This document shows positions 2,166 to 23,112 of a DNA stretch of 25,506 nucleotides, in pieces. The translations under genes and the position numbers were made by a program. The notes beneath the pieces are model-generated. The model saw nothing but the letters and a program-made list of their open reading frames with translations. It had not been told where the DNA came from and searched no databases. This DNA comes from Nitrososphaerota archaeon. GTDB lineage: Archaea; Thermoproteota; Nitrososphaeria; Nitrososphaerales; JAHFOH01. Each line of letters starts with the position of its first letter. Positions within the stretch are counted from its first letter, which is position 1. The stretch spans positions 1 through 25,506 of the forward strand of contig JAHFOH010000004.1 of NCBI GenBank assembly GCA_023266955.1, read 5' to 3'.

Positions 2166-2522
2166 CTACTGCTCAGTGTATAGCTCTTCAGCGCCCTTGA
2201 TACAGAGAAATGTAAAAGGATGGCTCACTATGTTCAGAAACTGATGCGCCGTATTGGACGGTACGAAGACCGTCTCCCCCGGTTTCACTTCCATCTCCTA
2301 GTCACCAACTCTTGCTAATCTCCTTCCCTCGAGAATGTAGACTTGGTGCTCGTAAGGATCTCTATTAAGAGGCGTATAACCACCTGATTCAACTGTGTAG
2401 TGTCTAAGGAAGAATTTCTGAGCGCCGTCGGTTCTATCTATCAGGTATTTCACCACTACTTTGTGAGCGCCTTTCTTCTCTAGAACTTTAGCGTCCTTCT
2501 GCTCAACGTTGATAGCGTACAT
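2166..2522 (-). pseudogene. Cupin-domain protein interrupted by an in-frame TAG
   Basis: After the TAG at 2298-2300 the same frame continues EMEVKPGETVFVPSNTAHQFLNIVSHPFTFLCIKGAEELYTEQ*, which is cupin motif 2. Motif 1 is degenerate (GGYTPLNRDPYEHQVYILEGRR where HxH and GxG are expected). Confidence 0.8.
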
Positions 2523-7700: not shown

Positions 7701-7714
7701 AGAAACCTTATTAA
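7701..7714 (+). promoter_or_regulatory. BRE/TATA promoter (AGAAACC-TTATTAA) of the ilv-leu operon
   Basis: TTATTAA at 7708-7714 lies 27 nt before ATG 7742, the same spacing as the asd and pheA promoters, but about 190 nt before ilvB. Confidence 0.6.
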
Positions 7715-7741
7715 CCAATCAGGAAATTCGCCGTCAACTAA

Positions 7742-7837
7742 ATGTCGCATAATGTCGCAGCGGTGAGTGGTGCCTTCAGGCCCTCACCTGTAGTGATTGC
7801 TGCGAGTTTGATTCTCGTTATTATTCTTCTCTTGTAA
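7742..7837 (+). CDS. Putative ilv-leu operon leader peptide (31 aa, Ile/Leu/Val-rich)
   Basis: MSHNVAAVSGAFRPSPVVIAASLILVIILLL*: 14 of 31 residues are I/L/V, including 12 of the last 15 and all of the last 9. It is the first ORF after the TATA box, upstream of the BCAA operon. Confidence 0.75.
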   Translation: MSHNVAAVSGAFRPSPVVIAASLILVIILLL

Positions 7838-7874
7838 AGCCCACAAAAAGCAAGTTACCTGTTGCTTGTGGGCT
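7838..7874 (+). terminator. Attenuator-like hairpin directly after the leader stop codon
   Basis: AGCCCAC (7838-44) / GTGGGCT (7868-74) plus AAGCAA (7848-53) / TTGCTT (7862-67), 3-A bulge, 8-nt loop, followed by GTTTCTCCC. Confidence 0.55.
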
Positions 7875-7900
7875 GTTTCTCCCAGTTAGAGGTGACTCTT

Positions 7901-9616
7901 TTGGCCCAAATGTCCGGCGCAAAAGCCTTGATGGAAGCGCTTCGGCGCGAAGGTGTAGACGTAGTCTTCGGTATTCCTGGCGGAGCCAACCTCCCCATCT
8001 ATGATGCTCTCTATGATTCGGGGATTAGGCATATCCTAGCACGTCATGAGCAATCGGCAGCGCACATGGCGGACGGATTTGGCAGAGTTAGCGGCAGACC
8101 AGGAGTCTGCATGGCAACCTCTGGACCAGGTGCCACTAACCTAGTTACGGGTCTCGCAACTGCCTACATGGATTCTTCACCCGTCGTAGCGATAACTGGC
8201 CAAGTCCCAAGAGCGATGATAGGCAAGGATGCGTTTCAGGAGACGGACGTAATTGGGGTCGTCACTTCTATCACAAAGTACACGTTCCAACCCAAGAAAA
8301 GTAGTGAAATTCCTGAAGCCATCAAGAAGGCATTCTATATAGCTTCAACAGGTAGACCCGCTCCGGTTCTAGTTGACATTCCGAAGGACGTGCAGACGGA
8401 AGTCGAAGAGATGAACTTTCCTGACAAGGTTGAGATTCGAGGCTACAGTCCTCAAAGAACTCCTGACCCGATTCAGATCGAACGCGCTTCTGAGATACTG
8501 ATGAGAGCCGAAAGGCCAGTTCTATGGGGAGGTGGAGGCATTAGGATCTCTAACGCGTCCCAGCCGTTCCAAGCCATAGCGGAGCTACTCCTGGCTCCAG
8601 TAGTTACCTCGCTTCAAGGTAAGGGCGCATTTCCCGAGAACCATCCTTTGTCCCTAGGTCCCATGGGAATGCACGGCAGGGCAGAGTCGAATAAGCTGGT
8701 GCAAGAGTGTGACGCCCTGCTTGCAGTGGGAGTTCGCTTTTCAGATAGAACTACCGGCAAAGCGAGCGACTTCTGCCCTGGCGCTAAAATTATACATCTT
8801 GATGTAGATCCTTCTGAGATAGGGAAGAACAAGGCAGTAGAAGTATACATTGTAGGTGATGCGCAAGAAACACTAAATCAACTCTACTCTTCTCTCTCAA
8901 ATAGGATGGACAAGAGAGATGGCCCTTATCCCTGGCTCCAGAGAGTAAAGGAAGTTCGGGAAGAACTGCGTAACATCCCAGGCTACAGAGAAAACTCTGC
9001 CGACTTGTCTGGACCAAAAATTGTGAGGAAACTGAGAGAGATCCTACCTCCAGATGCCATCCTCACAACCGGAGTAGGTAGGCACCAGATGTGGGCAGAG
9101 TTGCACTACAAGGTTCTGAAGTCGAGGACTTGGATCACATCTACCGGTTTGGGGACTATGGGATTTGGCCTTCCAGCAGCAGTAGGTGCTAAAGTTGCTA
9201 GACCTGATGTACCTGTGGTGGACTTGGATGGGGATGGATCGTTCCTGATGACGGAAAACTGCCTTGCCACTTGCATAGATGAGGGCATACCGCTAACAGT
9301 CGTAATCCTCAACGATAACAGTCTCGGCATGGTTGAACAGTGGCAGCGAATCTTCTACAATAGAAGGTACATGGGAGTCAAACTAGGCAAAAGCCCCGAC
9401 ATGGTCAGGCTCGCTGAAGCATACGGGGCACAGGGCATCAGAGTTGGTTCGCTCGAAGAGTTTGAGAGATCATTGAAACAGTCCATCAACGACGACGTAG
9501 TAACTGTCATTGACGTCCCCGTTTCGCCTGAAGAGGACGTATTCCCATTCATGCCTCCCGGGAAATCTCTGAAGGATACGATTCACGGAGCACCGCAGGA
9601 GATGGCTGTCTTTTGA
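7901..9616 (+). CDS. ilvB: Acetolactate synthase, large subunit
   Basis: FGIPGG, RHEQSAAHMADG, TSGPGATN, ITGQV, GTMGFGLPAA, GDGSF..NNSLGMVEQWQ TPP motif. Start reassigned from 7862 to TTG 7901, 5 nt after the RBS GAGGTGA; ATG 7910 is the alternative. Confidence 0.96.
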   Translation: MAQMSGAKALMEALRREGVDVVFGIPGGANLPIYDALYDSGIRHILARHEQSAAHMADGFGRVSGRPGVCMATSGPGATNLVTGLATAYMDSSPVVAITGQVPRAMIGKDAFQETDVIGVVTSITKYTFQPKKSSEIPEAIKKAFYIASTGRPAPVLVDIPKDVQTEVEEMNFPDKVEIRGYSPQRTPDPIQIERASEILMRAERPVLWGGGGIRISNASQPFQAIAELLLAPVVTSLQGKGAFPENHPLSLGPMGMHGRAESNKLVQECDALLAVGVRFSDRTTGKASDFCPGAKIIHLDVDPSEIGKNKAVEVYIVGDAQETLNQLYSSLSNRMDKRDGPYPWLQRVKEVREELRNIPGYRENSADLSGPKIVRKLREILPPDAILTTGVGRHQMWAELHYKVLKSRTWITSTGLGTMGFGLPAAVGAKVARPDVPVVDLDGDGSFLMTENCLATCIDEGIPLTVVILNDNSLGMVEQWQRIFYNRRYMGVKLGKSPDMVRLAEAYGAQGIRVGSLEEFERSLKQSINDDVVTVIDVPVSPEEDVFPFMPPGKSLKDTIHGAPQEMAVF

Positions 9617-10086
9617 TCCAAATCTACATCTTGTCCGCTATAGTTGAGAACAAGCCCGGAGTTTTGTTCAGAGTCTCTAGCATGATAAGACGAAGAGGCT
9701 TCAATATTGAGAGCATTACCGTAGGCGCCCTTAAGGAAAAGGATCTCTCTCGAATGACTCTAACAATAAGAGCTGACGAGACGACTGTCGAAAACGTCGT
9801 AAAACAGCTCCGCAAACTCATAGACATACTTGATGTGAGTGTTTTTGAAGCTAAAGATACAGTTGCAAGGGAACTGGCATTAGTGAAGCTTAGCGCCGAC
9901 GATGCTAAGCTCATTCTTGAGCGAACCCCTGCATCAAACTGTCGAATTATCGATTCTTCATCGGACCCAGTCGTGCTCGAGATTACTGGTACTGCAGAGG
10001 AGATCGATTCGTTCTTTGAGGCTGCAGATAGATTCAGAGCTATCGAAGTTTCTAGAACAGGAATTACAGCGTTGTCGAGGGGGTAA
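9613..10086 (+). CDS. ilvH: Acetolactate synthase, small regulatory (ACT) subunit
   Basis: VENKPGVLFRVSSMIRRRGFNIESITVG, RELALVK, EVSRTG; 4-nt overlap with ilvB. Confidence 0.93.
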   Translation: MIQIYILSAIVENKPGVLFRVSSMIRRRGFNIESITVGALKEKDLSRMTLTIRADETTVENVVKQLRKLIDILDVSVFEAKDTVARELALVKLSADDAKLILERTPASNCRIIDSSSDPVVLEITGTAEEIDSFFEAADRFRAIEVSRTGITALSRG

Positions 10087-10088
10087 AA

Positions 10089-11678
10089 GTGGCGGAAAGC
10101 GACATCCCGGACAATCAGCCTTTTGTTAGAATCTTCGACACCACACTTAGGGATGGAGAGCAGACTCCAGGCGTAGCCTTGACCCCTGAAAAGAAGCTGC
10201 AGATAGCACGTCAACTCGACCGGCTTGGGGTAGATACAATCGAAGCAGGTTTCCCAATAACTTCACAGGGAGAACGCGAAGCGATCAAGCTTATCGCTAA
10301 GGATGGTCTTCGTGCCGAAATCTGTGCGTTGTCTCGTGCAGAAAAGGAAGACATTGATGCAGCCATAGGCTGCGGCGTATCTGCAATCCACATCTTCCTC
10401 GCGGCTTCAGATCTGCACCTAAAGTATAAGCTAATGATCACTAGGGAGGAGGCTCTACGTAATGCTGTCGAGGCGATCGAGTACGCAAAGAGACATGGCG
10501 TAACAGTCGAATTCTCAGCCGAGGATGCAACTAGGGCAGATCAAGAGTTCCTAGTTCGTTTCTTCAGATCCGCTTCTGAGGCTGGGGCAGATAGGCTTGA
10601 CATACCTGATACTGTGGGCGTCATGACGCCCGAGAGAATGTCCAACCTTGTAACAAAAATCTACTCTGCATGCGCCGCTCGTATCAGCGTCCATTGCCAC
10701 GACGACTTTGGACTAGCGGTAGCAAATACCCTAGCAGGAATCAAGGCAGGTGCTAGTCAAGCTCATGTAACCATCAATGGCCTCGGTGAGAGAGCGGGCA
10801 ACGCCTCCCTAGAAGAAGTAGTGATGGCACTTCATGAGCTTAAGGGAATCAAGACAAGAGTAAACACTAGATTGCTGTATGAGACGTCTAGATTAGTGTC
10901 AAAACTTACTGGCGTGATAGTTCAACCGAACAAGGCAATCGTTGGAGAGAATGCATTTGGACATGAATCAGGTATACACACACACGGAATTCTGGCGAAT
11001 CCATTGACGTACGAACCTTTTGATCCTTCTGCCTTGGGTCGGGCTAGGTGGCTTCAGGCAGGAAAACATGCTGGCACGCATGGAATAGAGGCGCAGCTAA
11101 AGGCAATGCGCCTGTATCCTGGTAGGGAGGAATTAAAGGAGATAGTAAGCAAAGTGAAGGAGCTTGGTGATCTGGGTAAAAGGGTAACTGATTCCGACCT
11201 CTACCTAATTGCCGTGAATGTGACGAAGAGAGACCGATCTGACCGCGACCTCGTGAAACTGGTCAATCTTGAAGTCAAGACTGGCGTAGGCATTACGCCC
11301 ATAGCTCATGTTGAGCTCAGAATAGGAGAGAAGATTCATTCCAGAACGGAGGTCGGCGTAGGACCGATTGATGCTGCAATAAAGGCGATTCAAAGTATAA
11401 CGAGTGGAAGCGCAAATATTAGACTAAAGGAGTACAGACTTGACGCAATCACTGGAGGTTCGGACGCTCCGGCGGAGGCCATCATAGTGGTCGAGGATAA
11501 GGATGGGTATACGGCTTCTGCCAGGGCCATAGGCGACGATGTTGTGGTTACAAGCGTCCAAGCTATGATACAAGGAATCAACGCGATTTTACTTAAGAAC
11601 ATACCTTCAACATATGTAACCAGAGCGGAGACAAAGTCTTCTCTTATGCCCCCTGGCGAAGAAATTGACTCTAAATGA
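10089..11678 (+). CDS. leuA: 2-isopropylmalate synthase (LeuA/CimA family)
   Basis: FDTTLRDGEQTPG, EAGFP, FSAEDA, PDTVG, HCHDDFGLA, GLGERAGN, HESGIH, C-terminal regulatory domain (GVGPIDA). LeuA versus CimA specificity cannot be settled by eye. Confidence 0.88.
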   Translation: MAESDIPDNQPFVRIFDTTLRDGEQTPGVALTPEKKLQIARQLDRLGVDTIEAGFPITSQGEREAIKLIAKDGLRAEICALSRAEKEDIDAAIGCGVSAIHIFLAASDLHLKYKLMITREEALRNAVEAIEYAKRHGVTVEFSAEDATRADQEFLVRFFRSASEAGADRLDIPDTVGVMTPERMSNLVTKIYSACAARISVHCHDDFGLAVANTLAGIKAGASQAHVTINGLGERAGNASLEEVVMALHELKGIKTRVNTRLLYETSRLVSKLTGVIVQPNKAIVGENAFGHESGIHTHGILANPLTYEPFDPSALGRARWLQAGKHAGTHGIEAQLKAMRLYPGREELKEIVSKVKELGDLGKRVTDSDLYLIAVNVTKRDRSDRDLVKLVNLEVKTGVGITPIAHVELRIGEKIHSRTEVGVGPIDAAIKAIQSITSGSANIRLKEYRLDAITGGSDAPAEAIIVVEDKDGYTASARAIGDDVVVTSVQAMIQGINAILLKNIPSTYVTRAETKSSLMPPGEEIDSK

Positions 11679-11712
11679 CAGTGAATTACAGTAGTATAAT
11701 CTTGAGGTTCTA

Positions 11713-12756
11713 ATGACCAAATACAGGATCTGCCTGCTCCCAGGAGATGGAGTCGGTCCCGAAGTAAGTGAGGCCACTTTGCAGGTGTTGAATGCTCTAG
11801 CCGACTACCTAGACTCAAAGCTTGACATCCGGTTTATCGAAGGAGGCGATAACTACGCTCAAAGGTATGGCCAACCTCTTCCCGAGGAGGCTATACTTGC
11901 GATCAGGGATTCCGACGCGTGTCTAAAGGGTCCTGTTGGGGCCACCGCGATGGATGTAACGGTCAGGCTGAGGCAAATGTTTGATCTCTATGCGAATGTT
12001 AGACCAATAAAATCGTACTCAAACGTTCAGAGCTTAAGTGATAACGTCGACTTCGTCATAGTCAGAGAAAACACTGAGGATCTTTACAAAGGATTTGAGT
12101 TTGAGTTGGATGATACCACCGTAGCGCTGAGGGTAATTACAAAGAAAAGCTGCCTCAGGATTGCAGAATATGCTTTCAGGCTGGCTCGTGAACGGAACAA
12201 CAAGAAAAGCGTGGTCGCCGTTCACAAGGCTAACGTCATGCGAAAGACCTGTGGCACTTTCCTTGCTGCGTGTAGGGAAGTCGCTAGGAGTCATGAAGAA
12301 ATCAACTTCTCTGATATGCTGGTCGATACAGCAGCTATGAACCTCATTCGAAGACCTGATTCCTTTGACGTTATAGTTACAACAAATGTGTTTGGAGATA
12401 TTCTGTCCGATGAAGCAGCTCAAATTGTCGGTGGGCTGGGAATGGCTCCTTCTGCGAATATTGGTGAAAATTTTGCGTTGTTTGAGCCAGTTCATGGGTC
12501 AGCCCCTGACATAGCTGGCCTTGGGGTTGCGAACCCATTATCAATGATACTTTCTGCTAAAATGATGCTCGAATGGATAGGCTCGACGCGTAATGATGAT
12601 AAATTCAGGAAGGCTGCAGCTTTCCTGCAGAGAGCGGTAGAGAGGACGCTGCTTCAGGGTGTAAAAACTCCAGACATCGGTGGCACCAGTAAGACTACAG
12701 ATGTGGCTTCGGCTGTACGTGAATCCCTTTCCTTAGGCGTTCGATCATTAGCATGA
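11713..12756 (+). CDS. leuB: 3-isopropylmalate dehydrogenase (archaeal isocitrate/isopropylmalate DH family)
   Basis: LPGDGVGPEV, LYANVRP, VRENTEDLY, VHKANV, NVFGDILSD, FEPVHGSAPDIAG; operon context. Confidence 0.9.
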   Translation: MTKYRICLLPGDGVGPEVSEATLQVLNALADYLDSKLDIRFIEGGDNYAQRYGQPLPEEAILAIRDSDACLKGPVGATAMDVTVRLRQMFDLYANVRPIKSYSNVQSLSDNVDFVIVRENTEDLYKGFEFELDDTTVALRVITKKSCLRIAEYAFRLARERNNKKSVVAVHKANVMRKTCGTFLAACREVARSHEEINFSDMLVDTAAMNLIRRPDSFDVIVTTNVFGDILSDEAAQIVGGLGMAPSANIGENFALFEPVHGSAPDIAGLGVANPLSMILSAKMMLEWIGSTRNDDKFRKAAAFLQRAVERTLLQGVKTPDIGGTSKTTDVASAVRESLSLGVRSLA

Positions 12757-13727
12757 CTCCATTCAACTATGTCTGGATGAATGGTAACTTTGTTACTTCT
12801 AAGGACGCTACTGTCCCTATCCTTACTCATACTCTGCACTACGGAACCGGAGTTTTCGAAGGAATACGTGCCTACCCCGTCGGCAATGATTTAATCATCT
12901 TTAGACTTCAAGAGCACATGGAGAGGCTCATTCGCTCAGCAAAGATGGTCTACCTGAATCCTCGCTACACTGCTGACCAACTTTCTATTGTGACGGTGGA
13001 ATTGATGAGAAAGAATGAAGTGCGTCGCTCGGCTTACATTCGCCCTATCATTTTCACGGGCTCAGAAAGTTTAGACTTAGATCTTAGAAAGTCCTCACTT
13101 CATGCAGCGATAGCAGTGATCCCTTTCGACAAGTACTTCGAAAAGGATGGTCTCAAAGCCTGCATCTCGAATTGGAGGAAAATATCAGATTCATCTTCGC
13201 CTACGAAGGCCAAAGCCTCCGGCAATTATCTGAATTGCGTTTTGGCTAAGACGGAAGCGGGAATTAATGGTTATGACGAAGCCTTACTCCTGAGCCAAGA
13301 TGGCACTGTCTGCGAGGGCTCCGGCGAGAACATTTTCATAGTTAGAAACAGAGAGCTTTACACCCCGCCATTATCCTCGCCAATACTCGCAGGTATTACA
13401 CGAGACTCTATTATCACACTAGCTCGAGATGATGGTATGCGAGTATTCGAGAAGGAGATTACGCGAGCGGAGCTGTACTCTAGTGACGAGGTCTTTCTTA
13501 CAGGCACAGCGGCTGAGGTATCATCAGTAGTAGAGATCGACGAGAGAAAGATAGGCAATGGAAGGAAGGGACCAATAACTACTAGGATACAGGAGCTGTT
13601 TTCCCTGCTACTTGCATGCAAGCTCGATAAATACTTCGCATGGCTCACTCATGTCTACACCGAGAATCAATCCATCAAGGCCGCAATCACTAAGAATAGA
13701 CAACCCAGAATGAAACGAAGGAGTTGA
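12753..13727 (+). CDS. ilvE: Branched-chain amino acid aminotransferase (class IV)
   Basis: LHYGTGVFEGIRAY, YIRP, KAKASGNY, EGSGENIF, LAGITR, EVFLTGTAAEV. Confidence 0.96.
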   Translation: MTPFNYVWMNGNFVTSKDATVPILTHTLHYGTGVFEGIRAYPVGNDLIIFRLQEHMERLIRSAKMVYLNPRYTADQLSIVTVELMRKNEVRRSAYIRPIIFTGSESLDLDLRKSSLHAAIAVIPFDKYFEKDGLKACISNWRKISDSSSPTKAKASGNYLNCVLAKTEAGINGYDEALLLSQDGTVCEGSGENIFIVRNRELYTPPLSSPILAGITRDSIITLARDDGMRVFEKEITRAELYSSDEVFLTGTAAEVSSVVEIDERKIGNGRKGPITTRIQELFSLLLACKLDKYFAWLTHVYTENQSIKAAITKNRQPRMKRRS

Positions 13728-13730
13728 GAG

Positions 13731-15176
13731 ATAGGCTCGACAATCTTTTCGAAGATTTTTGATGCGCATGTTTTAGCTGAGCGATCCGACGGTCAGTCGC
13801 TCATCTATATTGACAGGCATCTGACGCACGAAGTAACCTCGCCTTTGGCGTTCGAGGGGTTACGGAAAGCGGGCCGACGAGTAAGTAGACCAGACCTAAC
13901 CTTCGCAGTCATGGATCACAACGTGCCGACGGGTGATCGAGCGCTGCCTGTTCTCGACGACATGTCTGGCAAGCAGATGGATGCATTGGCTAGGAACTCG
14001 GCGGAGTTTGGTATCACATGCTTCGATTATTTAAGCCCCTTCCAAGGGATTGTCCACATCATCGGTCCGGAACTTGGGCTAACATTGCCCGGGACTACGA
14101 TTGTGTGCGGCGATAGTCATACTGCCACCCATGGAGCTTTTGGTGCCCTCGCGTTGGGAATCGGGACCAGCGAGGGTGAGCATGTCTTTGCGACCCAGGC
14201 GCTGTGGCTTCGAAAGCCGAAGCAGATGGATATTCGGCTCTCCGGTAGGCTACCAAATGGTGTAACTGCTAAGGACGTCATCTTATGGATCATTCGACGC
14301 ATCGGTACGGGTGGCGCGATTGGCCATGTCGTCGAATACACTGGCGACACGGTCGAGCAGCTTTCGATTGAGGAGCGGATGACACTGACAAACATGGCGA
14401 TCGAAGCTGGCGCACGAACAGCCATCATATCCCCTGACGAGAAGACTTTCAACTACCTTCGTAATGCACTATATGCTCCGCAAGGGGACGAGTGGGACGC
14501 AGCTGTCCAATACTGGCGTTCGCTTCGAACCGATTCCAACGCGCAATACGATACATCTTTGCATTTTGATGTGAATAACCTAGCCCCTCAGGTAACGTGG
14601 GGAACTAACCCCGCCATGACTGTAAGTGTGACTGAGAATGTGCCCTCGCCCGAGGATTTCGCTGACGCAAGTGACAAAGCGGCTGTGATGCGAGCGTTAA
14701 AGTATATGGGATTGCAGCCTGGCATGAAGGTCACCGACATCAGGATTGACGTGGTCTTTATCGGCTCCTGCACTAATGCACGGCTTTCAGACCTGATTGA
14801 TGTGGCGCGAGTCGTAAAGGGCAGACGCGTGACACCTTCGGTTCGAACGATGATTGTGCCAGGGTCCCAGCTAGTTAAGAGGCGAGCTGAGCAGCTAGGG
14901 CTGCACAGAATCTTCATAGAGGCCGGATTTGAATGGCGGAACTCTGGGTGTAGCATGTGCATTGCCATGAACGAGGACAAGCTCGGAAATGGCGAAAGAT
15001 GCGCAAGTACCTCAAACAGGAATTTCGAGAACCGCCAGGGACCTGGAGGACGCACCCATCTGGTAAGTCCCCTGATGGCTGCAGCTGCCGCGGTGGAGGG
15101 GAGGTTCGTGGACGTACGAGAGTTGGATTTGTTAAATGTTGAAGAGTTGGAGTTGAAAGGTGGATTTAATGCCTGA
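13731..15176 (+). CDS. leuC: 3-isopropylmalate dehydratase large subunit (long, bacterial-like type); apparent ATA start
   Basis: DHNVPT, CGDSHT, IGSCTNAR, GCSMC, STSNRNFENRQG. The conserved N-terminus (I)GSTIFSKIFDAHV..YIDRHLTHEVTSP lies upstream of the track's start (13845). It begins at ATA 13731, 7 nt after GGAG; in-frame TGA at 13725. Confidence 0.92.
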   Translation: MGSTIFSKIFDAHVLAERSDGQSLIYIDRHLTHEVTSPLAFEGLRKAGRRVSRPDLTFAVMDHNVPTGDRALPVLDDMSGKQMDALARNSAEFGITCFDYLSPFQGIVHIIGPELGLTLPGTTIVCGDSHTATHGAFGALALGIGTSEGEHVFATQALWLRKPKQMDIRLSGRLPNGVTAKDVILWIIRRIGTGGAIGHVVEYTGDTVEQLSIEERMTLTNMAIEAGARTAIISPDEKTFNYLRNALYAPQGDEWDAAVQYWRSLRTDSNAQYDTSLHFDVNNLAPQVTWGTNPAMTVSVTENVPSPEDFADASDKAAVMRALKYMGLQPGMKVTDIRIDVVFIGSCTNARLSDLIDVARVVKGRRVTPSVRTMIVPGSQLVKRRAEQLGLHRIFIEAGFEWRNSGCSMCIAMNEDKLGNGERCASTSNRNFENRQGPGGRTHLVSPLMAAAAAVEGRFVDVRELDLLNVEELELKGGFNA

Positions 15177-15795
15177 GCCTGTTCGCGAGGTTGTTGGCAA
15201 GGCGGCACCCTTAGAAGCTGACGATGTCGATACTGACCAAATCATCCCCGCTCAATTTCTCAAAGTGATAGAGAGGGACGGGTTGGGCAGGTATCTGTTC
15301 TATCGCTGGCGATATGATGAGCAAGGCAAACCCGTGCAGGGCTTTGTCCTGGACCGCGAAGAGTTTCGAGGTGCCGGGATTCTCGTAGTGGGTCGTAACT
15401 TCGGCATTGGTTCTTCCAGGGAGAATGCCGTTTGGGCCTTGATGGATGCAGGAATAAAGTGTGTCATAGCCACCTCTTTTGGCGATATATTCTACAACAA
15501 TGCCTCGAAGAATGGGCTTCTATGCGTCAAGTTGTCAGGAGAGAGCGTCAAGCACCTGAGAGAGAAGGCAAAATCGGGAACGCTAAGCCTAACCGTCTCT
15601 TTGGATGATCAGGTCGTCAATTATCTGGACGGCAAAATACCATTTGAGATCGAGACGCACATAAAGGAGAGGCTTCGCAGCGGATTGGATGATATCGCAA
15701 TGACGCTGTCAATGTATAAAAGTAAAATCAAGCACTATGAGGAAAAGATGCCGACCTTCCTTATGCCCAAGGCTCGCAGATCACCGTTGGAATAG
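15169..15795 (+). CDS. leuD: 3-isopropylmalate dehydratase small subunit
   Basis: DVDTDQIIPAQFL, NFGIGSSRENA, SFGDIFYNN, GLDDI; ATG 15169 follows the RBS GGTGG. Confidence 0.94.
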   Translation: MPEPVREVVGKAAPLEADDVDTDQIIPAQFLKVIERDGLGRYLFYRWRYDEQGKPVQGFVLDREEFRGAGILVVGRNFGIGSSRENAVWALMDAGIKCVIATSFGDIFYNNASKNGLLCVKLSGESVKHLREKAKSGTLSLTVSLDDQVVNYLDGKIPFEIETHIKERLRSGLDDIAMTLSMYKSKIKHYEEKMPTFLMPKARRSPLE

Positions 15796-15826
15796 TCGCC
15801 TCCCGGTAGCTACTGGATCTCTAGTT

Positions 15827-17011
15827 ATGAAACACATCGCAGGTCGCACTCGATTCTTTACGGAGTCAGTGATCCGGGAGATGACTCGCCTAGCCCAGCG
15901 ATATGGAGCCATCAATTTGGCGCAAGGCTTTCCTGATTTCCCAGCACCACTAGAGGTAAAGGAGGCAGCCCAACGTGCCATCGCTGCTGACATCAATCAG
16001 TACGCAATCACTTGGGGTGCGAAGTCACTCCGAGACGCCATCGCATGGAAGATGGGGCACTTTCAAGAAATGACGATCGATCCTGAGCGGGAGGTGACCG
16101 TGACATGTGGTGCGACTGAGGCGATGATGGCCACAATGCTGGCGCTTGTTGACCCCGGGGAGGAGGTCATTGTGTTTGAGCCCTTCTATGAAAACTACGG
16201 GCCTGATGCGATAGTCTCGGGCGCAAAGCCTCGGTACGTGCAATTAAGGCCGCCAACTTGGGAGTTCGACGAGGAGGAGCTGAAGAGTGCGTTCTCAAGC
16301 AGGACGAAAGCGGTTATAGTTAACACGCCGCACAATCCCACAGGGAAAGTCTTCACCCGATCAATGCTTCGCTCGATCGCCGATTTGTGCGTTGATTTTG
16401 ATGTTGTAGCAGTCACCGATGAGATCTACGAGCATATCCTGTACGATGGACGAGTGCACGTTAGCCTCGCTACCTTGAACGGGATGCAAGACCGAACTGT
16501 GACTATCTCGGGCTGCTCTAAGACATATAGTGTGACAGGTTGGCGAGTGGGATATACCGTAGCTGCGCCTCGGTGGACTGACGCCATTAAAAAGGTGCAC
16601 GACTTTCTGACTGTTGGGGCTCCTGCTCCCCTGCAGGAAGCCGCAGCCCTTGCTCTGCACCAGCCAGATAAATTCTATGTTAAGCTGCGAGAGCAATATG
16701 CGGAGCGGCGTCAGGTGATGCTTCAAGTGTTGCGAGAAGCGGGTTTTCCCTACTTCCCTCCGGAAGGAGCGTACTATGTGATGACAGAGATTGGACCGCT
16801 AGGAGCTGAGGACGATGTTGAATTCGCGAATTGGTTGGTTAAGGAGATTGGCGTTGCGACAGTGCCGGGGTCGAGCTTCTATCATGATCCAACTTTAGGT
16901 AGAGGATATATTCGCTTCGCGTTTCCCAAGACATTGAACACGCTTCGCGCGGCAGAGGAGCGTCTCGTTAAGATACGAGAAAGGCGCGTTAAGCTAGCCC
17001 GACACAGCTAG
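15827..17011 (+). CDS. Class I/II PLP aminotransferase (YbdL/methionine-glutamine-kynurenine transaminase-like)
   Basis: INLAQGFPDF, VTCGATEA, EPFYENY, NTPHNPTGKVF, DEIYE, SKTYSVTGWRVG, YIRFAF. Start taken as ATG 15827 (MKHIA..), after the leuD stop. Confidence 0.88.
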   Translation: MKHIAGRTRFFTESVIREMTRLAQRYGAINLAQGFPDFPAPLEVKEAAQRAIAADINQYAITWGAKSLRDAIAWKMGHFQEMTIDPEREVTVTCGATEAMMATMLALVDPGEEVIVFEPFYENYGPDAIVSGAKPRYVQLRPPTWEFDEEELKSAFSSRTKAVIVNTPHNPTGKVFTRSMLRSIADLCVDFDVVAVTDEIYEHILYDGRVHVSLATLNGMQDRTVTISGCSKTYSVTGWRVGYTVAAPRWTDAIKKVHDFLTVGAPAPLQEAAALALHQPDKFYVKLREQYAERRQVMLQVLREAGFPYFPPEGAYYVMTEIGPLGAEDDVEFANWLVKEIGVATVPGSSFYHDPTLGRGYIRFAFPKTLNTLRAAEERLVKIRERRVKLARHS

Positions 17012-17058
17012 GGATTATTCTTCGCAGTGAAATAGACTCACGCTCGACCGACCTTAAT

Positions 17059-17074
17059 TGCCGTAGCTGCGGCA
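17059..17074. repeat. Near-perfect 16-bp palindrome
   Basis: TGCCGTAGCTGCGGCA (reverse complement TGCCGCAGCTACGGCA) between the aminotransferase and the amidase. Confidence 0.5.
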
Positions 17075-17126
17075 TCTCACCGCAGACGGGTCAACTAGCT
17101 TTGGTCGCACACAGTACATTAGCCAT

Positions 17127-17133
17127 TTTATAT
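17127..17133 (+). promoter_or_regulatory. TATA box (TTTATAT) for the leaderless amidase gene
   Basis: 23 nt upstream of ATG 17157. Confidence 0.6.
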
Positions 17134-17156
17134 CAATCCTTTTCCAGGACGCTAGC

Positions 17157-18098
17157 ATGCCGCGACTGCACCACCTGGACCCGCAGTACGTCCACTTCCG
17201 ATGGGATAACTCGCTATCACGCGCACTTACTATCGATTCCGGCGACACTGTAGTCTTCGACCTCCAAGAAAACAGCGCCGGTCAAATCACCCGCACCTCG
17301 ACCAGCGACGCGGTCGCCAAGCTCGACCGCAACAGGACGTACCCACTCGGTGGCCCCATCTACCTGCGCGACGCGAAACCTGGCGATGCGCTCGAAGTTC
17401 AAATTCTGAAGCTACAGCCCGCCGACTGGGGGTGGACCGCCATCCTTCCCGGCTTTGGCTTACTGAGCGAGGAGCTGCCCGGGCCCTACCTAGTCCATTG
17501 GGATCTCTCGAACAAGCCAACAGCAAAAGGGATTCGGGGTGCCGCTGTGCCTATCGAGCCCTTCTGTGGCGTCATGGGAGTCGCCCCCGACGAACCGGGC
17601 TCCTTTCACCCCACTCCACCCGGCAAATTTGGAGGCAACATGGACATTCGCCATCTGACCGCCAGCAGCACACTGCGCTTGCCTGTCTGGGTGGATGGTG
17701 CGCTCTTCTCTTGCGGGGACTGCCACAGCGCCCAAGGGGATGGTGAGGTCTGCGGGTTTGGGATTGAAACGTCGATGCGGGTCACGCTGCGCTTCTACCT
17801 CCGGAGGCAGCTCCGCCTGACCTCGGCGGAGTTCGTCACTCGGAATGGGCTCACGCCGCGCACTGACCGCCGCGGCTATTACGTGACTACGGGCATCCGC
17901 TCCGACCTCATGGAAGGCGCACGTGAAGCGGTCCGTCAGATGATCGCCCACCTGATGGGTGCCTACGGTTTGAGTCGCCTTGATGCTTACGTGCTCTGCA
18001 GCGTCGCCGTCGACCTGAAGGTCAGCGAAGTGGTGGACAAGCCCAACTGGATCGTCTCCGCCTACCTGCCACTAAGCGTCATGCGCCGGACGGGTTAG
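17157..18098 (+). CDS. Acetamidase/formamidase family protein
   Basis: HFRWDNS, SGDTVVF, GGPIYLRDAKPGDALEVQI, PGKFGGNMDI, GDCHSAQGDGEVCG, AYVLCSVAVDL. Confidence 0.9.
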   Translation: MPRLHHLDPQYVHFRWDNSLSRALTIDSGDTVVFDLQENSAGQITRTSTSDAVAKLDRNRTYPLGGPIYLRDAKPGDALEVQILKLQPADWGWTAILPGFGLLSEELPGPYLVHWDLSNKPTAKGIRGAAVPIEPFCGVMGVAPDEPGSFHPTPPGKFGGNMDIRHLTASSTLRLPVWVDGALFSCGDCHSAQGDGEVCGFGIETSMRVTLRFYLRRQLRLTSAEFVTRNGLTPRTDRRGYYVTTGIRSDLMEGAREAVRQMIAHLMGAYGLSRLDAYVLCSVAVDLKVSEVVDKPNWIVSAYLPLSVMRRTG

Positions 18099-18264
18099 AT
18101 CAGCTTTGAACAGGAGCTGCGGGCTCTGGCTCGATGCGGGCATTCTGCCGCTCACCTGCAAACTCGGAGGAAACAGTGAACGCAAACACGCGAAGATGCA
18201 AATTGACTGGGAGAGCAGTCGACGGAGCTAAGATTATCCTTCATTTTATTCCTTGGATTGTAGT

Positions 18265-19668
18265 TCAGTGTTTTCCGAGACCAAAAGCTGAGTGAATAAC
18301 CCTAACCGCTTCTCGACTGTCGTTCTCCTTAACGACGAAAGATATGTTTAGCTCAGATGAGCCTTGAGCAACCATCCTCACGTTAATGCCCTTCGCGGCT
18401 ACGGCCCCGAAGACCTTCGCGGCAATCCCTGGCGTTCCCTTCATTCCAGCCCCTACGACTGCGATTACATTAACGTCATCCTCTGAAACTACTTCCTTCA
18501 CCTCTCCTCTTCCGAGGAGCGCTATTTCGAGGGCGTTGACGGCTCTTTGAACCATATTCCTCTTGACTACCATGCTTATGTTAGATTCTGAGACGCTTTG
18601 GGATATCATGAGAACATTTACTCCGTTTCTGCCCATCAGATCGAAGATCTTGGCTGCACTTCCTGGACGCCCAACCATGCTAGCTCCGGAGACAGTAATG
18701 ACGGCCACATCCTTCACTAGAGCTACGGACTTGACGATCTGGTTAGTGTCTAACTTCGTCGCTTCGGTTATCTTCGTCCCCGCATTTTGAGGGTTGAAGG
18801 TGTTCCTGATTCTTACCGGAATTCTCTTTTCCGCCACAGGCTCCAGAGCTCGTGGGTGCATAGCCTTAGCTCCGAAGACTGCCATCTCGCCCGCCTCTGC
18901 GTACGATACTTCATCAAGTAGTCTTGCTTCAGGTGCGATCTTGGGATCGCAAGTCATCAGTCCGTCTACATCACTCCATATCCAAACTTCATCGGCTTCA
19001 ATTGCCGACGCTACAATAGTAGCAGTAAAATCAGATCCGCCTCGACCCAGAGTGGTTATCTCTCCGTTTTGCGTCAAAGCTATGTAGCCCGTGATTACAG
19101 GCGTGGTGCGAGAAGATAGTAATGAGTCTAGAGTTTCCTTCACCTGAAGTCTGGTGACCTCCATTAGAGGGTAAGCGTCGCCGAAGTTTTCGTCGGTTAC
19201 TATGCCGCATTCGCCTCCCATGAGATACTTTGCGTGAAGACCCAAGTCCATAAGGGCGCCCCAAACGATAGGTGTGGATAGTCTTTCTCCGCATGAGAGA
19301 ATCCTGTCCTTCGAGCGGGGTGTGAGTTCTCGAAGAACGGCCACTGCCGCAGCTGACTTCTCTAATTCGTCCATTCCTGATTTCAAATATTCCGAAACCT
19401 TCCGTCGAATTTCTTGATCCTTTACCGCATCGTCAAGCGCTAGCCGGTGCCTTTCCTTTAAGGACGAAACAGACTTTTCAACGGCGTCGATGGCTCCCTC
19501 ACGTGCATTCTCCGTCAGCTCAATGAGTCGCTCGGTCACACCTTCCATGGCCGAGGCAACCAAAACGATCTCGTTGCTATGGCTATGGCTCTTTACTAGT
19601 TCGGCGATATGTCTAATCCTCTTCCCGTCATCCAATGAAGTCCCACCGAACTTCATCACAAGTTTCAT
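18265..19668 (-). CDS. lysC: Aspartate kinase with two C-terminal ACT domains
   Basis: VMKFGGTS, SAMEGVT, GERLS, TTLGRGGSDFTA, WSDVDG..DP, GAKAMHP, MISQSVSE, QGSSELNIS; ATGA overlap with hom. Confidence 0.95.
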   Translation of the reverse strand: MKLVMKFGGTSLDDGKRIRHIAELVKSHSHSNEIVLVASAMEGVTERLIELTENAREGAIDAVEKSVSSLKERHRLALDDAVKDQEIRRKVSEYLKSGMDELEKSAAAVAVLRELTPRSKDRILSCGERLSTPIVWGALMDLGLHAKYLMGGECGIVTDENFGDAYPLMEVTRLQVKETLDSLLSSRTTPVITGYIALTQNGEITTLGRGGSDFTATIVASAIEADEVWIWSDVDGLMTCDPKIAPEARLLDEVSYAEAGEMAVFGAKAMHPRALEPVAEKRIPVRIRNTFNPQNAGTKITEATKLDTNQIVKSVALVKDVAVITVSGASMVGRPGSAAKIFDLMGRNGVNVLMISQSVSESNISMVVKRNMVQRAVNALEIALLGRGEVKEVVSEDDVNVIAVVGAGMKGTPGIAAKVFGAVAAKGINVRMVAQGSSELNISFVVKENDSREAVRVIHSAFGLGKH

Positions 19669-20678
19669 GTTTGACTCCTTCCAGACAGCTGATCTCTGAT
19701 CTCGAGAAGGTCTCGAAGAACTGAGGATGCGGTTTCCATGCCTCCTGCACCTCTCCCAACAACCACTTTCTCACCTGAATATTCACAAAGGAATTTTACA
19801 GCGTTGTACGGACCGCTTACAAACAAAGGGTCCCTCCTGTCAATCTCAGAGGGAGAGACGCTGAATTCGTCGTCGGCGGAAGCTAAAAGCCTGATACCTT
19901 TCCCTCGATCTCGGGCATTGTGTAAATCTTCACGAGATACTTTCCCAATCCCTCTTATTTTCACATCTCTTAGAGTAGGTCTTTGACTCATCAGGGAGTT
20001 AACTATAATCACGAGCTTTACCGCAGTGTCGACTCCTTCCACATCCAGTGAAGCGTCAGCCTCTGCATACCTTTCCTTTTGAGCGTACTTCAGAGCTTCC
20101 TCAAAGGTTGAGTTATTCTGCTCCATCTGGGTGAGAATTAAATTCGTGGTTGCATTCAGGACTCCCTTGAGGCCAATAATCCTGTCACCTCTGGAACACA
20201 CCTTGCCGAAATCAAGGATTGGTGTACCAGCACCTACAGCACCGCTAAACTTCAGGTGGACATTGTTGTATCTGGCAAGCTCTAGGAGAGCGTGAAACGC
20301 CCTTGCAAGAGGTCCCTTGTTCGTAGTGATTACGCTTTTTTTAGCTTGGAGCGATGCCTTGATGTGTGATAATCCTGGCTCACCAGTCTTGAAGTTTGTT
20401 GGGGTAGTTTCGATGAGCACATCGGCCTCGATCCTTCTGATAAGTTCTACCGGCAACTCGTGTGTTTTATCTTCCGCTACCGTTCCCTTCTCGTATTTCG
20501 TTTTTAGGGCCATTTCGAGATCCAGACCTTTCTCGTTTACAACGGCTCCTCGGCTGTCTGCTATGCCGACGACCCTCGGGCGCATACCGAAATCCGTGAT
20601 CAATTGCTTTTCTTTCATTATGAGCAGCTTTGCTACACTCTGCCCCACTGCACCGAAGCCTACCATCACCAGTCTCAA
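19665..20678 (-). CDS. hom: Homoserine dehydrogenase (no C-terminal ACT domain)
   Basis: VMVGFGAVG, TNKGPLA, VGAGTPI, NATTN, AEADASLDVEGVD, GRGAGG. The start is more likely TTG 20678 (MRLVMVGFG, after GAGG/GGTG) than GTG 20702. Confidence 0.93.
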   Translation of the reverse strand: MRLVMVGFGAVGQSVAKLLIMKEKQLITDFGMRPRVVGIADSRGAVVNEKGLDLEMALKTKYEKGTVAEDKTHELPVELIRRIEADVLIETTPTNFKTGEPGLSHIKASLQAKKSVITTNKGPLARAFHALLELARYNNVHLKFSGAVGAGTPILDFGKVCSRGDRIIGLKGVLNATTNLILTQMEQNNSTFEEALKYAQKERYAEADASLDVEGVDTAVKLVIIVNSLMSQRPTLRDVKIRGIGKVSREDLHNARDRGKGIRLLASADDEFSVSPSEIDRRDPLFVSGPYNAVKFLCEYSGEKVVVGRGAGGMETASSVLRDLLEIRDQLSGRSQT

Positions 20679-20720
20679 TGCGGCCGCACCAAGCCTCTTC
20701 ACGTGCTGTTTTTGAATACT

Positions 20721-20738
20721 CTAAGTTGTGACAGTCAT
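20721..20738 (-). other. Thr-rich minigene MTVTT* upstream of hom-lysC
   Basis: ATG ACT GTC ACA ACT TAG in the pheA-hom spacer, in frame with hom. Confidence 0.3.
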
Positions 20739-20757
20739 GCTCTAGAAAGCTCACGCG

Positions 20758-21591
20758 CTACGATTCTTTAGCCTTTGGATAAGATCCCAGTGCCTTGGTG
20801 AAGGCAGCTATACGTTCAAGATCGGCTAACGCTTCCTTACATTTCACGTCAGAGATGTGCCCCTCAAAGTCTAAGAAGAAATGGTACTCCCAAGGCTTCT
20901 GCCTAGTTGGCCTCGATTCAATCCTAGTTAGATTGATGCCCCTCTTCGCAAATGGTTCCATTGCTTGATAAAGCGTGCCAGGCTTATGCGCCACCGAGAA
21001 TACTATTGACGTCTTGTCACGGCCAGTAGGGCCTGATTCATCTTTTGAAATAACAAAGAACCTCGTGTAGTTATTGGGCTGGTCTTGAATCCCTCTGGCA
21101 AGGACCTGCATGCCGTACGCATCAGCTGAGATTTCGCCTGCTATCGCAGCGGCCTGCTTCATGTTACGCTCCTTAAGCATCTTCACACTGCCAGCCGTAT
21201 CATAGGCGGGAATTATCTCCCACACTTTTCCTTCTAGGAACTTTCTACACTGTGACAACGCCTGAGGATGCGAGTAAACTGCTTCAATGTCAGCAATATT
21301 TGTGCCAGTATGGGCTATCAGGCAGTGGATAATTTTTAGTTCGATTTCACCACCAACTTTGAGACTCGAGCGCAAGAGAAGGTCGTACGTTTCATTTACA
21401 CTCCCTTCTAAGGAATTCTCGACTGGCACAACTGCGTATGGGACTGCTCCCTTTTCGACAGCGTCGAAGACCTCATGGAGAGTCCTAAGAGCTTCGGTCA
21501 TAACCGTGTTCCCGAAATGGGAGAATACAGCTTGCTCGCTATACGCCCCATGTTCGCCCTGAAATGCAACGACGTTTCCTTCTTTCTGCAC
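20758..21591 (-). CDS. pheA: Prephenate dehydratase (PDT + ACT, no chorismate mutase domain)
   Basis: AFQGEHGAYS, PVENSLEGSV, SHPQALSQC, NYTRF, LTRIESRP, WEYHFFLD. Confidence 0.96.
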   Translation of the reverse strand: MQKEGNVVAFQGEHGAYSEQAVFSHFGNTVMTEALRTLHEVFDAVEKGAVPYAVVPVENSLEGSVNETYDLLLRSSLKVGGEIELKIIHCLIAHTGTNIADIEAVYSHPQALSQCRKFLEGKVWEIIPAYDTAGSVKMLKERNMKQAAAIAGEISADAYGMQVLARGIQDQPNNYTRFFVISKDESGPTGRDKTSIVFSVAHKPGTLYQAMEPFAKRGINLTRIESRPTRQKPWEYHFFLDFEGHISDVKCKEALADLERIAAFTKALGSYPKAKES

Positions 21592-21619
21592 TTTGAAAAG
21601 GAACCGGCACGACCTAGCG

Positions 21620-21626
21620 ATATAAG
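21620..21626 (-). promoter_or_regulatory. TATA box (CTTATAT) for pheA-hom-lysC
   Basis: 28 nt upstream of GTG 21591. Confidence 0.55.
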
Positions 21627-21670
21627 GGCATCATGAATTGATGAAATCCGTAGAACTTCTTCGCGTTAGT

Positions 21671-21682
21671 CAAACTTTATAT
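21671..21682 (+). promoter_or_regulatory. BRE/TATA promoter (CAAAC-TTTATAT) of the aromatic operon
   Basis: TTTATAT at 21676-21682, about 210 nt upstream of the aspartokinase ATG and 41 nt upstream of a short ORF. Confidence 0.65.
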
Positions 21683-21723
21683 GAGTGGATTACGCGAGGG
21701 TGGCTATCAAGGTGGAGGCGATA

Positions 21724-21792
21724 ATGCGAGGCGATTACGTTTACATTAGCGAGAGTGGTTACCTTTTCGAGCTCGCCTCTATCGTCGGCTAG
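21724..21792 (+). CDS. Putative aromatic-operon leader peptide (22 aa; 3 Tyr + 1 Phe)
   Basis: MRGDYVYISESGYLFELASIVG*, with a strong RBS (AAGGTGGAGG; GGAGG 5 nt before ATG), just downstream of the TATA box. Confidence 0.6.
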   Translation: MRGDYVYISESGYLFELASIVG

Positions 21793-21894
21793 CATCTTAC
21801 CAAATATTCTAAGCGCGCTGTTACGCAATTTCTCCTCGAATCAAGTCGAAGCTGTGCCTCTTCAGCTACGTGAGATTGCGACGGAGGAGTTCTA

Positions 21895-23112
21895 ATGAGT
21901 GAAACTGTTGTAGTGAAGTTTGGCGGGTCGGTTTTGGAGAATGACCAGAAGATTCGTCGCGCAGCGGGCATGATTGAACAGATGCTAAAGGAATCGAAGG
22001 TGGTGGTTGTAGTTTCTGCTCTTAAGGGCACAACTGACGGTCTTATCAGGACGGCCCGAAGGCTTAACCCTAGAGCTTCAAAGGAACTCCTCGACGATAT
22101 CCTTGCCATGGGCGAGAAAACGAGTGCAAGGCTTTTCGCTGCTGCACTCTCAAGATTCGGCCTGAAACCTGTCGTAGTTGACCCCGGATCAGAGTACTGG
22201 CCAATTGTTACTGACGAGGGTCATCTGGATGCGAATCCCCTCTACGAAGAGACGTCAAAATTGATCAGAGAGAGGATAGTTCCGATCCTGCAGTCTGGAG
22301 CCGTGCCTATAGTCTGTGGGTTCCTTGGGCTCACTAAGTCTGGCAAGATTACGACGCTGGGCCGCGGGGGGAGTGATACTACAGCAACGCTGCTAGGCAG
22401 CTGTCTTCAAGCGAGAGAGGTTGTGTTGGTGAAGGATACGGAAGGGGTTTTCTCCAGCGATCCTGATAAGGTCACGAATCCGGTTCCTCTTGAGAGGTTG
22501 AATCTCGAAGAGGCCCAAATTCTGACTGCTGGTGGAGCTAAGTTTCTTCATAAGAAAGCACTAAAGTACTTGCAGAATGGAATCAAAGTAAGAATAGCCA
22601 GTCTAACCAGCGCCCCACTTACAGGAACCGTAATCGTCGGAGACATTCCTGATCTCTCATTGACACGTTCTGCAAGCGACATAACAATGTTCACTATTTT
22701 GGCGGACGATGTGATCGACGCTACAAAACTCTCCTTCATCATCGACGAGATCAAGAAAGCTGGGCGGGCAATTGCTGGCTTGACTGTCGAAGAAAAGTCG
22801 ATGATTGTCTATGTGGAAGGCGGGAAGAGTCTTCTTGTGAAAATTCATGACGTTATGTTAAAGCACCATATTGGGAAGGCGCTCACTTCGTTTGAAAATC
22901 TCTCGATAATAATTGTGAAGGGAAAGGCTCTTGAGACAAGCCCAGGTATGGTCCAAAGAGTTACCCAGCCCCTAGCACGAAAAGGGATCAACATCTACGG
23001 TCTGGAAACCATTGGTTCATCGATCAGGGTCTTCGTTTCAGAAGAAGACGCCGATAGAGCTCTCTCCTTGATAAAATCCGCATTGATGGTGAGCAATCAT
23101 GCAGGAAGTTAG
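21895..23112 (+). CDS. Second aspartate kinase (shorter archaeal type), first gene of the aromatic operon
   Basis: VVKFGGSV, SALKGTTD, MGEKTSA, TTLGRGGSDTTA, DTEGVFSSDP, GAKFLH, C-terminal ACT-like PG..RV..L...INI; RBS GGAGG. Confidence 0.9.
   Translation: MSETVVVKFGGSVLENDQKIRRAAGMIEQMLKESKVVVVVSALKGTTDGLIRTARRLNPRASKELLDDILAMGEKTSARLFAAALSRFGLKPVVVDPGSEYWPIVTDEGHLDANPLYEETSKLIRERIVPILQSGAVPIVCGFLGLTKSGKITTLGRGGSDTTATLLGSCLQAREVVLVKDTEGVFSSDPDKVTNPVPLERLNLEEAQILTAGGAKFLHKKALKYLQNGIKVRIASLTSAPLTGTVIVGDIPDLSLTRSASDITMFTILADDVIDATKLSFIIDEIKKAGRAIAGLTVEEKSMIVYVEGGKSLLVKIHDVMLKHHIGKALTSFENLSIIIVKGKALETSPGMVQRVTQPLARKGINIYGLETIGSSIRVFVSEEDADRALSLIKSALMVSNHAGS

Follow-up and report, generated by a model that had tools for sequence, protein, structure and literature searches.

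The 25.5-kb window analysed here, which is one entire contig (JAHFOH010000004.1) of a Nitrososphaerota genome, carries two operons for amino-acid biosynthesis on its forward strand, the ilv-leu operon that begins with ilvB and the archaeal shikimate-entry (aro) operon headed by the aspartokinase gene ask2, and each is preceded by a short open reading frame (ORF) that recurs in related archaea. Both leaders are confirmed as real elements: the ilv leader by a conserved architecture in which a C-terminus rich in isoleucine, leucine and valine (ILV) recurs before ilvB, and the aro leader by a conserved, specific site rather than by aromatic richness. We put at roughly 60% the probability that these two upstream ORFs, which differ in design, enable the ribosome to gauge how well the amino acids of their operons are supplied, the aro type doing so by way of a +1 frameshift; that the ilv leader senses ILV supply, and that the aro-type leader shifts frame and responds to amino acid supply, is what we infer from comparison of sequences. 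The balance also tips, slightly, towards a broader proposal, namely that Nitrososphaeria, including the cultured Nitrosopumilus and Nitrososphaera, run 'frameshift attenuators', in which a single hungry Tyr/Phe, Trp or His codon is set in a site like that of bacterial prfB, and which together with the leader bearing the ILV run would constitute the first ribosome-based amino-acid sensing in Archaea as well as a novel application of recoding. In such attenuators the +1 shift would either make the first enzyme itself (TrpE) or carry the ribosome to the enzyme's start codon (aro and his).

A conserved site and an open +1 frame in the aro leader

The aro leader lies behind a TATA promoter (TTTATAT, 21676-82, forward strand; in relatives the TATA stands 44-54 nucleotides (nt) before the conserved motif) and consists of a Shine-Dalgarno (SD) sequence, AGGTGGAGG (21710-18), and a frame-0 ORF of 22 codons (MRGDYVY..., 21724-21792, with its stop codon TAG at 21790-92). 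An earlier interpretation of the window made from its letters alone (the sequence-only reading) had described this ORF as rich in tyrosine and phenylalanine and its spacer as holding an element directed against the ribosome site. The element holds up, as does the anti-SD pairing in the predicted fold of the window, and the aromatic richness does not: the peptide has just three Tyr and one Phe among its 22 residues, and one or two cognate codons are set in the conserved prfB-like site. The motif is found in 18 of 22 ask2 loci of relatives as a start codon, [R/K], GGC GAT NNN (C/G)TT TAY, which corresponds to the peptide pattern M-[R/K]-G-D-x-[L/V]-[Y/F]. In the window the proposed +1 shift site (site 1, 21728-21744) comprises the SD-like element GAGGCGAT (21728-35), the spacer TAC, GTT_T (21739-42) and the Tyr codon TAC (21742-44). 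A second proposed site in frame 0 (21751-21768), composed of the G-rich GAGAGTGGT, the spacer TAC, CTT_T (21763-66) and the Phe codon TTC (21766-68), recurs in relatives as GAT CAC CTT TTC (L038, L040 and L042) or with TTT TTC (L043). No other credible copy of the aro motif was found in the window genome, which makes a multi-site transcription-factor operator unlikely, and the asymmetry of the motif argues against a palindromic operator. In several relatives, G005 and G021 among them, a single divergent intergenic region serves both the aro leader and trpE.

From site 1 of the window the +1 frame stays open for 50 codons (21743-21895) and ends in a TAA (21893-95) that overlaps the ask2 start codon (ATG, 21895-21897) as TAATG. 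Across the relatives it is open for 23-50 codons and ends on or next to the ask2 start, usually with an ATGA or TAATG overlap and at one locus by in-frame fusion with ask2. It reaches to within 21 nt of the first gene in all 17 testable loci, against 4.7 expected from shuffles, and the -1 frame, used as a control, is open to the same extent in 3 of the 17. At 15 nt upstream of the site the +1 frame is closed in most loci; it contains no start codon whatsoever in L032 and L033 and only late ones elsewhere, and its peptide is conserved in openness and not in sequence. The closure before the site, the two loci devoid of start codons and the unconserved peptide together indicate that an independent ORF does not explain the aro +1 frame.

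The same site before trpE and hisG in relatives

The sequence-only reading had predicted that further biosynthetic operons, trp and his among them, would carry leaders of their own, and relatives indeed have a Trp codon at such a site before trpE and a His codon before hisG; neither gene was found in the 78%-complete genome from which the window comes, and all trp and his data are therefore those of relatives. The site is present with UGG in 22 of 29 trpE loci, in upstream ORFs of 6-25 codons that follow the pattern start-G-[D/G]-x-[L/F/V/I]-W, and in 21 of the 22 the +1 frame runs directly into full-length TrpE. Among the hisG loci, 16 of 30 carry the site with CAY (MGDYVHKL, for example), and the +1 frame reaches the hisG start in 13 of 15, compared with 4.6 expected. 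The codon that follows NUU thus fits the operon product in three operon types (Tyr/Phe in aro, Trp in trp and His in his). The P-site codon is always NTT (CTT, GTT, TTT or ATT), followed by T in aro and trp and by C in his, so that the +1 codon is UUU or UUC and re-pairing would be possible. Common to the aro, trp and his loci is the arrangement of an SD-like GG[C/U]GAU, three nucleotides and NUU; the tail of 16S ribosomal RNA (..GGATCACCTCC in four complete relatives, whose tails were used, the 16S 3' end of the window genome being unassembled) is complementary to GGUGAUC.

Based on these features, we propose that when cognate tRNA is plentiful the ribosome would remain in frame on the aro leader and stop about 100 nt before the first gene, and that when cognate tRNA is scarce the A site would stand empty and the P-site tRNA would slip by +1, from NUU_N to UUN, aided as in bacterial prfB by the SD-like element 3 nt upstream. 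The shifted ribosome would then translate the remainder of the leader, open the structure that hides the aspartokinase SD and stop on TAATG, upon which the first gene would be translated. In the predicted minimum-energy fold of the window, the anti-SD CTCCTC (21832-37) pairs with the ask2 SD GGAGGAG (21883-89), and the unpaired probability from SD to start is 0.24. The mechanism would extend to the trpE and hisG sites of relatives, which carry UGG and CAY, respectively; before trpE the +1 frame amounts to TrpE.

Several observations weigh against this proposal. Its main weakness is in trp: in 21 of 23 loci a GTG in the TrpE frame is embedded in the motif (GGGTGAT), and translation of TrpE could simply begin at it. 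In the aro copies the SD-like element is GGCGAU, which has one mismatch relative to a perfect SD. Strong pairing of the ask2 SD is confined to the window and absent from the folds of relatives, which leaves the 'off' state unexplained in most genomes. Finally, the relatives are kin, and locus counts here and below overstate independent support.

The alternative that survives best, although rather unlikely in our estimation, is that the aro/trp/his motif is an arrest peptide ([R/K]-G-D-x-L-aromatic) or a protein-bound RNA site that senses without any change of frame, the open +1 frame being an independent overlapping ORF or, before trpE, TrpE begun at the embedded GTG. Beyond the frequency of that GTG, such a peptide would account for the conserved amino-acid pattern, in which the Arg codons CGA and AGA and the Tyr codons TAT and TAC interchange. 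It does not account for GGC and GAT, which show almost no synonymous change while the middle codon is free, nor for L047 and L048, which retain the motif despite a stop as the middle codon and no start before it. The +1 frame likewise fits poorly with an overlapping ORF, given the two aro loci in which it cannot be started and the conservation of its peptides in openness only. As for TrpE, a GTG start is unusable at two loci, the only ones that exclude it: in L141 a +1-frame TAG lies between the GTG and the site, and no start codon precedes the conserved core, and in L145 there is no GTG.

A loose genome-wide scan for frameshift motifs was uninformative, yielding 26 matches compared with 41, 35 and 87 in -1-frame and complemented-motif controls. 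Its sole cognate-looking match, an upstream ORF (LGELLPHR) with a site resembling the motif and a Pro codon before the gene for prolyl-tRNA synthetase and a +1 frame open to the start (contig C4 of G000, about 2214-2300, reverse strand), was rejected as unconserved: the G-D-P-L motif that precedes this gene in relatives forms the C-terminus of an upstream gene with a length of roughly 100 amino acids or more, and the site in G000 is consistent with the false-positive rate of the scan.

An ILV-rich leader before ilvB

The ilv leader of the window is a forward-strand ORF of 31 codons plus TAA (ATG at 7742, TAA at 7835-7837), with a TATA-like box, TTATTAAC (7708-7715), 34 nt 5' of its ATG. The ILV-rich part extends from 7790 to 7834; 12 of the final 15 codons encode I, L or V, and the final nine (7808-7834) form an unbroken run. 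A stable hairpin follows directly 3' of the stop codon (7838-7874; free energy dG -18.6, z -2.9), and beyond it lie a U/C-rich tail (7875-7883), the SD GAGGTGA that serves as the ilvB ribosome site (7889-7895) and the ilvB start codon TTG (7901-7903), which was assigned by alignment since relatives begin MVEM, three codons before the aligned ATG at 7910.

We compared this locus with those of 30 genomes of the same order, from about 20 families, with IlvB proteins 56-72% identical. In 21 of the 30, ILV codons make up 7-10 of the last 12 in the best short ORF that ends 32-74 nt upstream of ilvB, compared with a maximum of 4-5 in shuffled sequence; 0-12 of 500 dinucleotide shuffles reach the observed count in 20 of these 21, and 29 of 500 do so in L027. 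Most of 80 further loci, which include Nitrososphaera, Nitrosopumilaceae, Nitrosotenuis and metagenome-assembled genomes labelled Bathyarchaeia, have the leader as well, bringing the total to 72 distinct leaders. Across them composition and position are kept, whereas neither peptide sequence nor length is. A TATA-like box stands 24-45 nt (mode 32) upstream of an in-frame leader start in 62 of the 72 loci, and because of this spacing the ORF is essentially leaderless and probably lies on a leaderless transcript. In a Nitrosopumilaceae relative the RNA-seq contigs start at the leader ORF, with no coverage upstream, and continue into ilvB, one of them being joined directly to the Illumina adapter at the leader ORF; they show read-through from leader into gene and carry no depth information. 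The hairpin, assessed by per-sequence folds and shuffles because its 3' arms are unalignable with MAFFT, starts 0-2 nt 3' of the stop in 50 of 64 loci (median z about -2), and its sequence varies between families.

No ILV-rich leader was found before ilvB in Nitrosocaldus-like genomes (family f9), in some Nitrososphaeraceae (f16) or in L028; the relatives' loci concerned are L012, L013, L015, L022, L023, L026 and L028, and so the leader has been lost or replaced in some lineages. Two variants of the layout were also seen. In L073, L088 and L092 the ILV-rich leader stops just 12-13 nt before the ilvB start, a geometry unlike that of the window, and the ilvB SD must hence lie inside the last codons of the leader. 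In L004 and L005 a second small ORF (MQVECVNYG and MHMECVNYG, respectively) follows the hairpin, whose 3' arm is SD-like, and its TGA overlaps ilvB codons 2-3, which may represent a chain of translational coupling in that family.

How the ilv leader might pass on its signal

A shortage of charged tRNA for Ile, Leu or Val would make ribosomes dwell on the last leader codons, and their position would decide whether the hairpin abutting the stop codon folds; the output would be either ilvB translation or termination of the transcript where the hairpin and its U-rich tail lie. The geometry is such that the 5' arm of the hairpin has to be melted by a ribosome that occupies the stop or one of the last two or three codons, whereas one further back leaves this arm free. 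In the short-spacer Nitrosopumilaceae (L027) the hairpin includes the ilvB SD and reaches the start codon, so that a model of unmasking by dwell time is favoured in these genomes; the SD of the window, like that of most lineages, is outside the hairpin.

The case for sensing by this leader has difficulties of its own. Were the stall to occur early in the ILV run, the hairpin could still fold freely. In constrained partition-function folds with the ribosome at five positions, computed for 72 loci, the mean exposure of the ilvB SD is 0.47 throughout, and a switch based on SD masking is consequently unsupported. Only about 60% of loci have the U-rich tail, a short U tract following the hairpin in many lineages (GGGTTTT, for example). 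Within the window genome, moreover, the ILV enrichment is unexceptional: about ten other upstream short ORFs score 11/14, hydrophobic short ORFs are frequent before unrelated genes, and an unbiased scan of this genome for upstream short ORFs of biased composition revealed no additional cognate leaders, did not single out the ilv leader as an outlier, and had as its top matches ORFs before genes for NIF3, HAD, DsrE and PIN proteins. A frameshift was also considered for the ilv leader and rejected. In 54 of 72 loci the -1 frame appears open between the ILV run and ilvB, which is an artefact of composition because runs of NUN cannot make -1-frame stops, and the +1 and -1 frames do not differ in openness when counted from the leader stop.

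The sequence-only reading had placed all leaders under bacterial-style transcription attenuation, in which stalling at cognate codons would choose between antiterminator and terminator and the archaeal RNA polymerase, perhaps with aCPSF1, would stop before the first gene when the amino acid is plentiful. The ilv leader lends this some colour, with its classical run of regulatory codons, a GC-rich hairpin followed by a U tract in many lineages, and co-transcription with ilvB. Nonetheless, we found no conserved second pairing that competes with the ilv hairpin and no conserved partner for its 3' arm, hence no terminator/antiterminator alternative, and the U tail is missing in about 40% of lineages. 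The aro leader has no run of end-product codons; indeed the aro, trp and his leaders each have one cognate codon and no conserved terminator, and termination control leaves unexplained why their +1 frame is kept open to the gene start. We thus hold attenuation of all leaders to be quite unlikely, and a +1 frameshift by which ribosomes are passed on to the first gene appears, from the sequences compared, to fit the aro, trp and his data better. A third possibility, that the ilv ORF encodes a hydrophobic membrane peptide or is a U-rich by-product that senses nothing, with the hairpin as a general stabiliser of the 5' untranslated region, draws on the similar ORFs before unrelated genes in the window genome and is very improbable, given that composition and C-terminal position rather than sequence or length are what about 20 families have kept, and that the ORF stands directly before ilvB with the hairpin abutting its stop.

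A third cognate leader had been claimed for hom. It is the minigene MTVTT (ATG ACT GTC ACA ACT TAG, five codons, 20738-20721, reverse strand) between pheA and hom, and the hom loci of 29 relatives hold no counterpart of it, no T-rich short ORF and no motif, for which reason we attribute it to chance. Among the cognate short ORFs assigned to separate amino-acid operons, those of ilv and aro are accordingly the ones conserved in relatives.

Relation to known systems

Control of amino-acid operons by leader peptides is a textbook mechanism in bacteria, and we know of no accepted archaeal example. Our literature searches recovered bacterial ilv attenuators and nothing on archaeal or Thaumarchaeota leader peptides, nor on either of the two elements described here. 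The upstream ORF of Corynebacterium ilvBNC is a branched-chain attenuator of the bacterial kind (PMC10272879; PMC11857589). It and E. coli ilvL, ivbL and leuL resemble the ilv leader in that a short ORF at the 5' end of an ilv-leu transcript has Ile, Leu and Val codons in a run, and in that a structured spacer separates this ORF from ilvB. The leader described here differs from them in its archaeal host, its TATA promoter, its leaderless ORF, the position of the run at the extreme C-terminus and the lone hairpin next to the stop, no terminator/antiterminator pair having been detected and Rfam giving no match. There is also a likeness to the translational attenuation of ermC and cat, where a stalled leader ribosome melts an adjacent hairpin, and the Nitrosopumilaceae hairpin that holds the ilvB SD (L027) is the closest case; the stall signal would, however, be tRNA supply rather than a drug, and in the window and most lineages the SD is outside the hairpin.

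The +1 site of prfB, which encodes RF2, consists of an SD, three nucleotides and CUU_UGA (PMC10798248). The aro, trp and his sites share with it an SD-like element 3 nt before NUU, a proposed P-site slip onto UUN at a slow A-site codon, a productive +1 frame, a frame 0 that ends soon after the site, and an autoregulatory logic. They are unlike it in that decoding would be slow at a sense codon (for Tyr/Phe, Trp or His) and not at a stop codon read by the gene's own product, in that an upstream ORF of biosynthetic operons houses the site, in Archaea, and in that the shifted ribosome in aro and his makes no enzyme and would instead deliver itself to the enzyme's start codon. Eukaryotes have hungry-codon and sensor frameshifts, namely that of Ty1 (CUU_AGG_C) and the +1 shift of antizyme; tRNA-Leu slips +1 from CUU when the next codon is slow, and the efficiency of shifting acts as a metabolic sensor. 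Ty1 and antizyme sense a rare tRNA or polyamines, in contrast to the matched set of cognate codons found here on several amino-acid operons. A 2021 review of archaeal recoding gives only the -1 shift of fucA1 as shown (PMC8211752).

If the ilv leader acts as proposed, archaea would have evolved or kept the same idea as bacteria, with a leaderless ORF and a TATA promoter as its setting. If the sites of aro, trp and his also act as proposed, they would represent a new regulatory principle, a frameshift at a starved sense codon used as a switch; this mode of gene regulation is not described in archaea, and it would enlarge the small set of cellular programmed frameshifts. The start of TrpE may be mis-annotated across Thaumarchaeota, and gene callers will miss upstream ORFs of this kind. 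The elements occur in cultivable ammonia oxidisers and are therefore accessible to testing.

Source and gene map of the window

The genome to which the window belongs was assembled from a groundwater metagenome and comprises 1.67 Mb. An archaeal host is indicated by its ADH synthase and DHQ synthase II genes, the archaeal entry to the shikimate pathway, and the closest ilvB genes are those of Thaumarchaeota/Nitrososphaeria assemblies such as UBA141 and Gagatemarchaeum. Covariance models of Rfam 15 run against the whole window gave a sole match, attributable to chance (E = 0.57), and none of the RNA runs checked for the window sequence contains it.

The gene map begins with asd (reverse strand), ilvC (forward) and ilvD (reverse) between 2698 and 7378, followed on the forward strand by the operon ilvB-ilvN-leuA-leuB-ilvE-leuC-leuD-aminotransferase (7901-17011). 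Next come a formamidase-like gene (17157-18098, forward), the pheA-hom-aspartokinase operon (18265-21591, reverse) and, from 21895 on the forward strand, the operon of aspartokinase 2 (ask2), ADH synthase, DHQ synthase II and aroD. The window has two aspartokinase genes, one in the pheA-hom operon (18265-19668, reverse) and the other, ask2 (21895-23112, forward), at the head of the archaeal shikimate-entry operon, which requires aspartate semialdehyde. In the ilv-leu operon, leuC lacks a canonical start: directly 3' of the ilvE stop TGA (13725-27), and in frame with it, comes the conserved N-terminus of LeuC, an ATA is found at 13731, and the first ATG, GTG or TTG, at 13845, would cost about 38 conserved residues, making ATA initiation, read-through or an assembly error possible. 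The formamidase/acetamidase-like gene, which lies between the ilv-leu operon and the convergent aspartokinase gene, forms a patch of 60% GC compared with about 49% elsewhere and may be a horizontally acquired insert.

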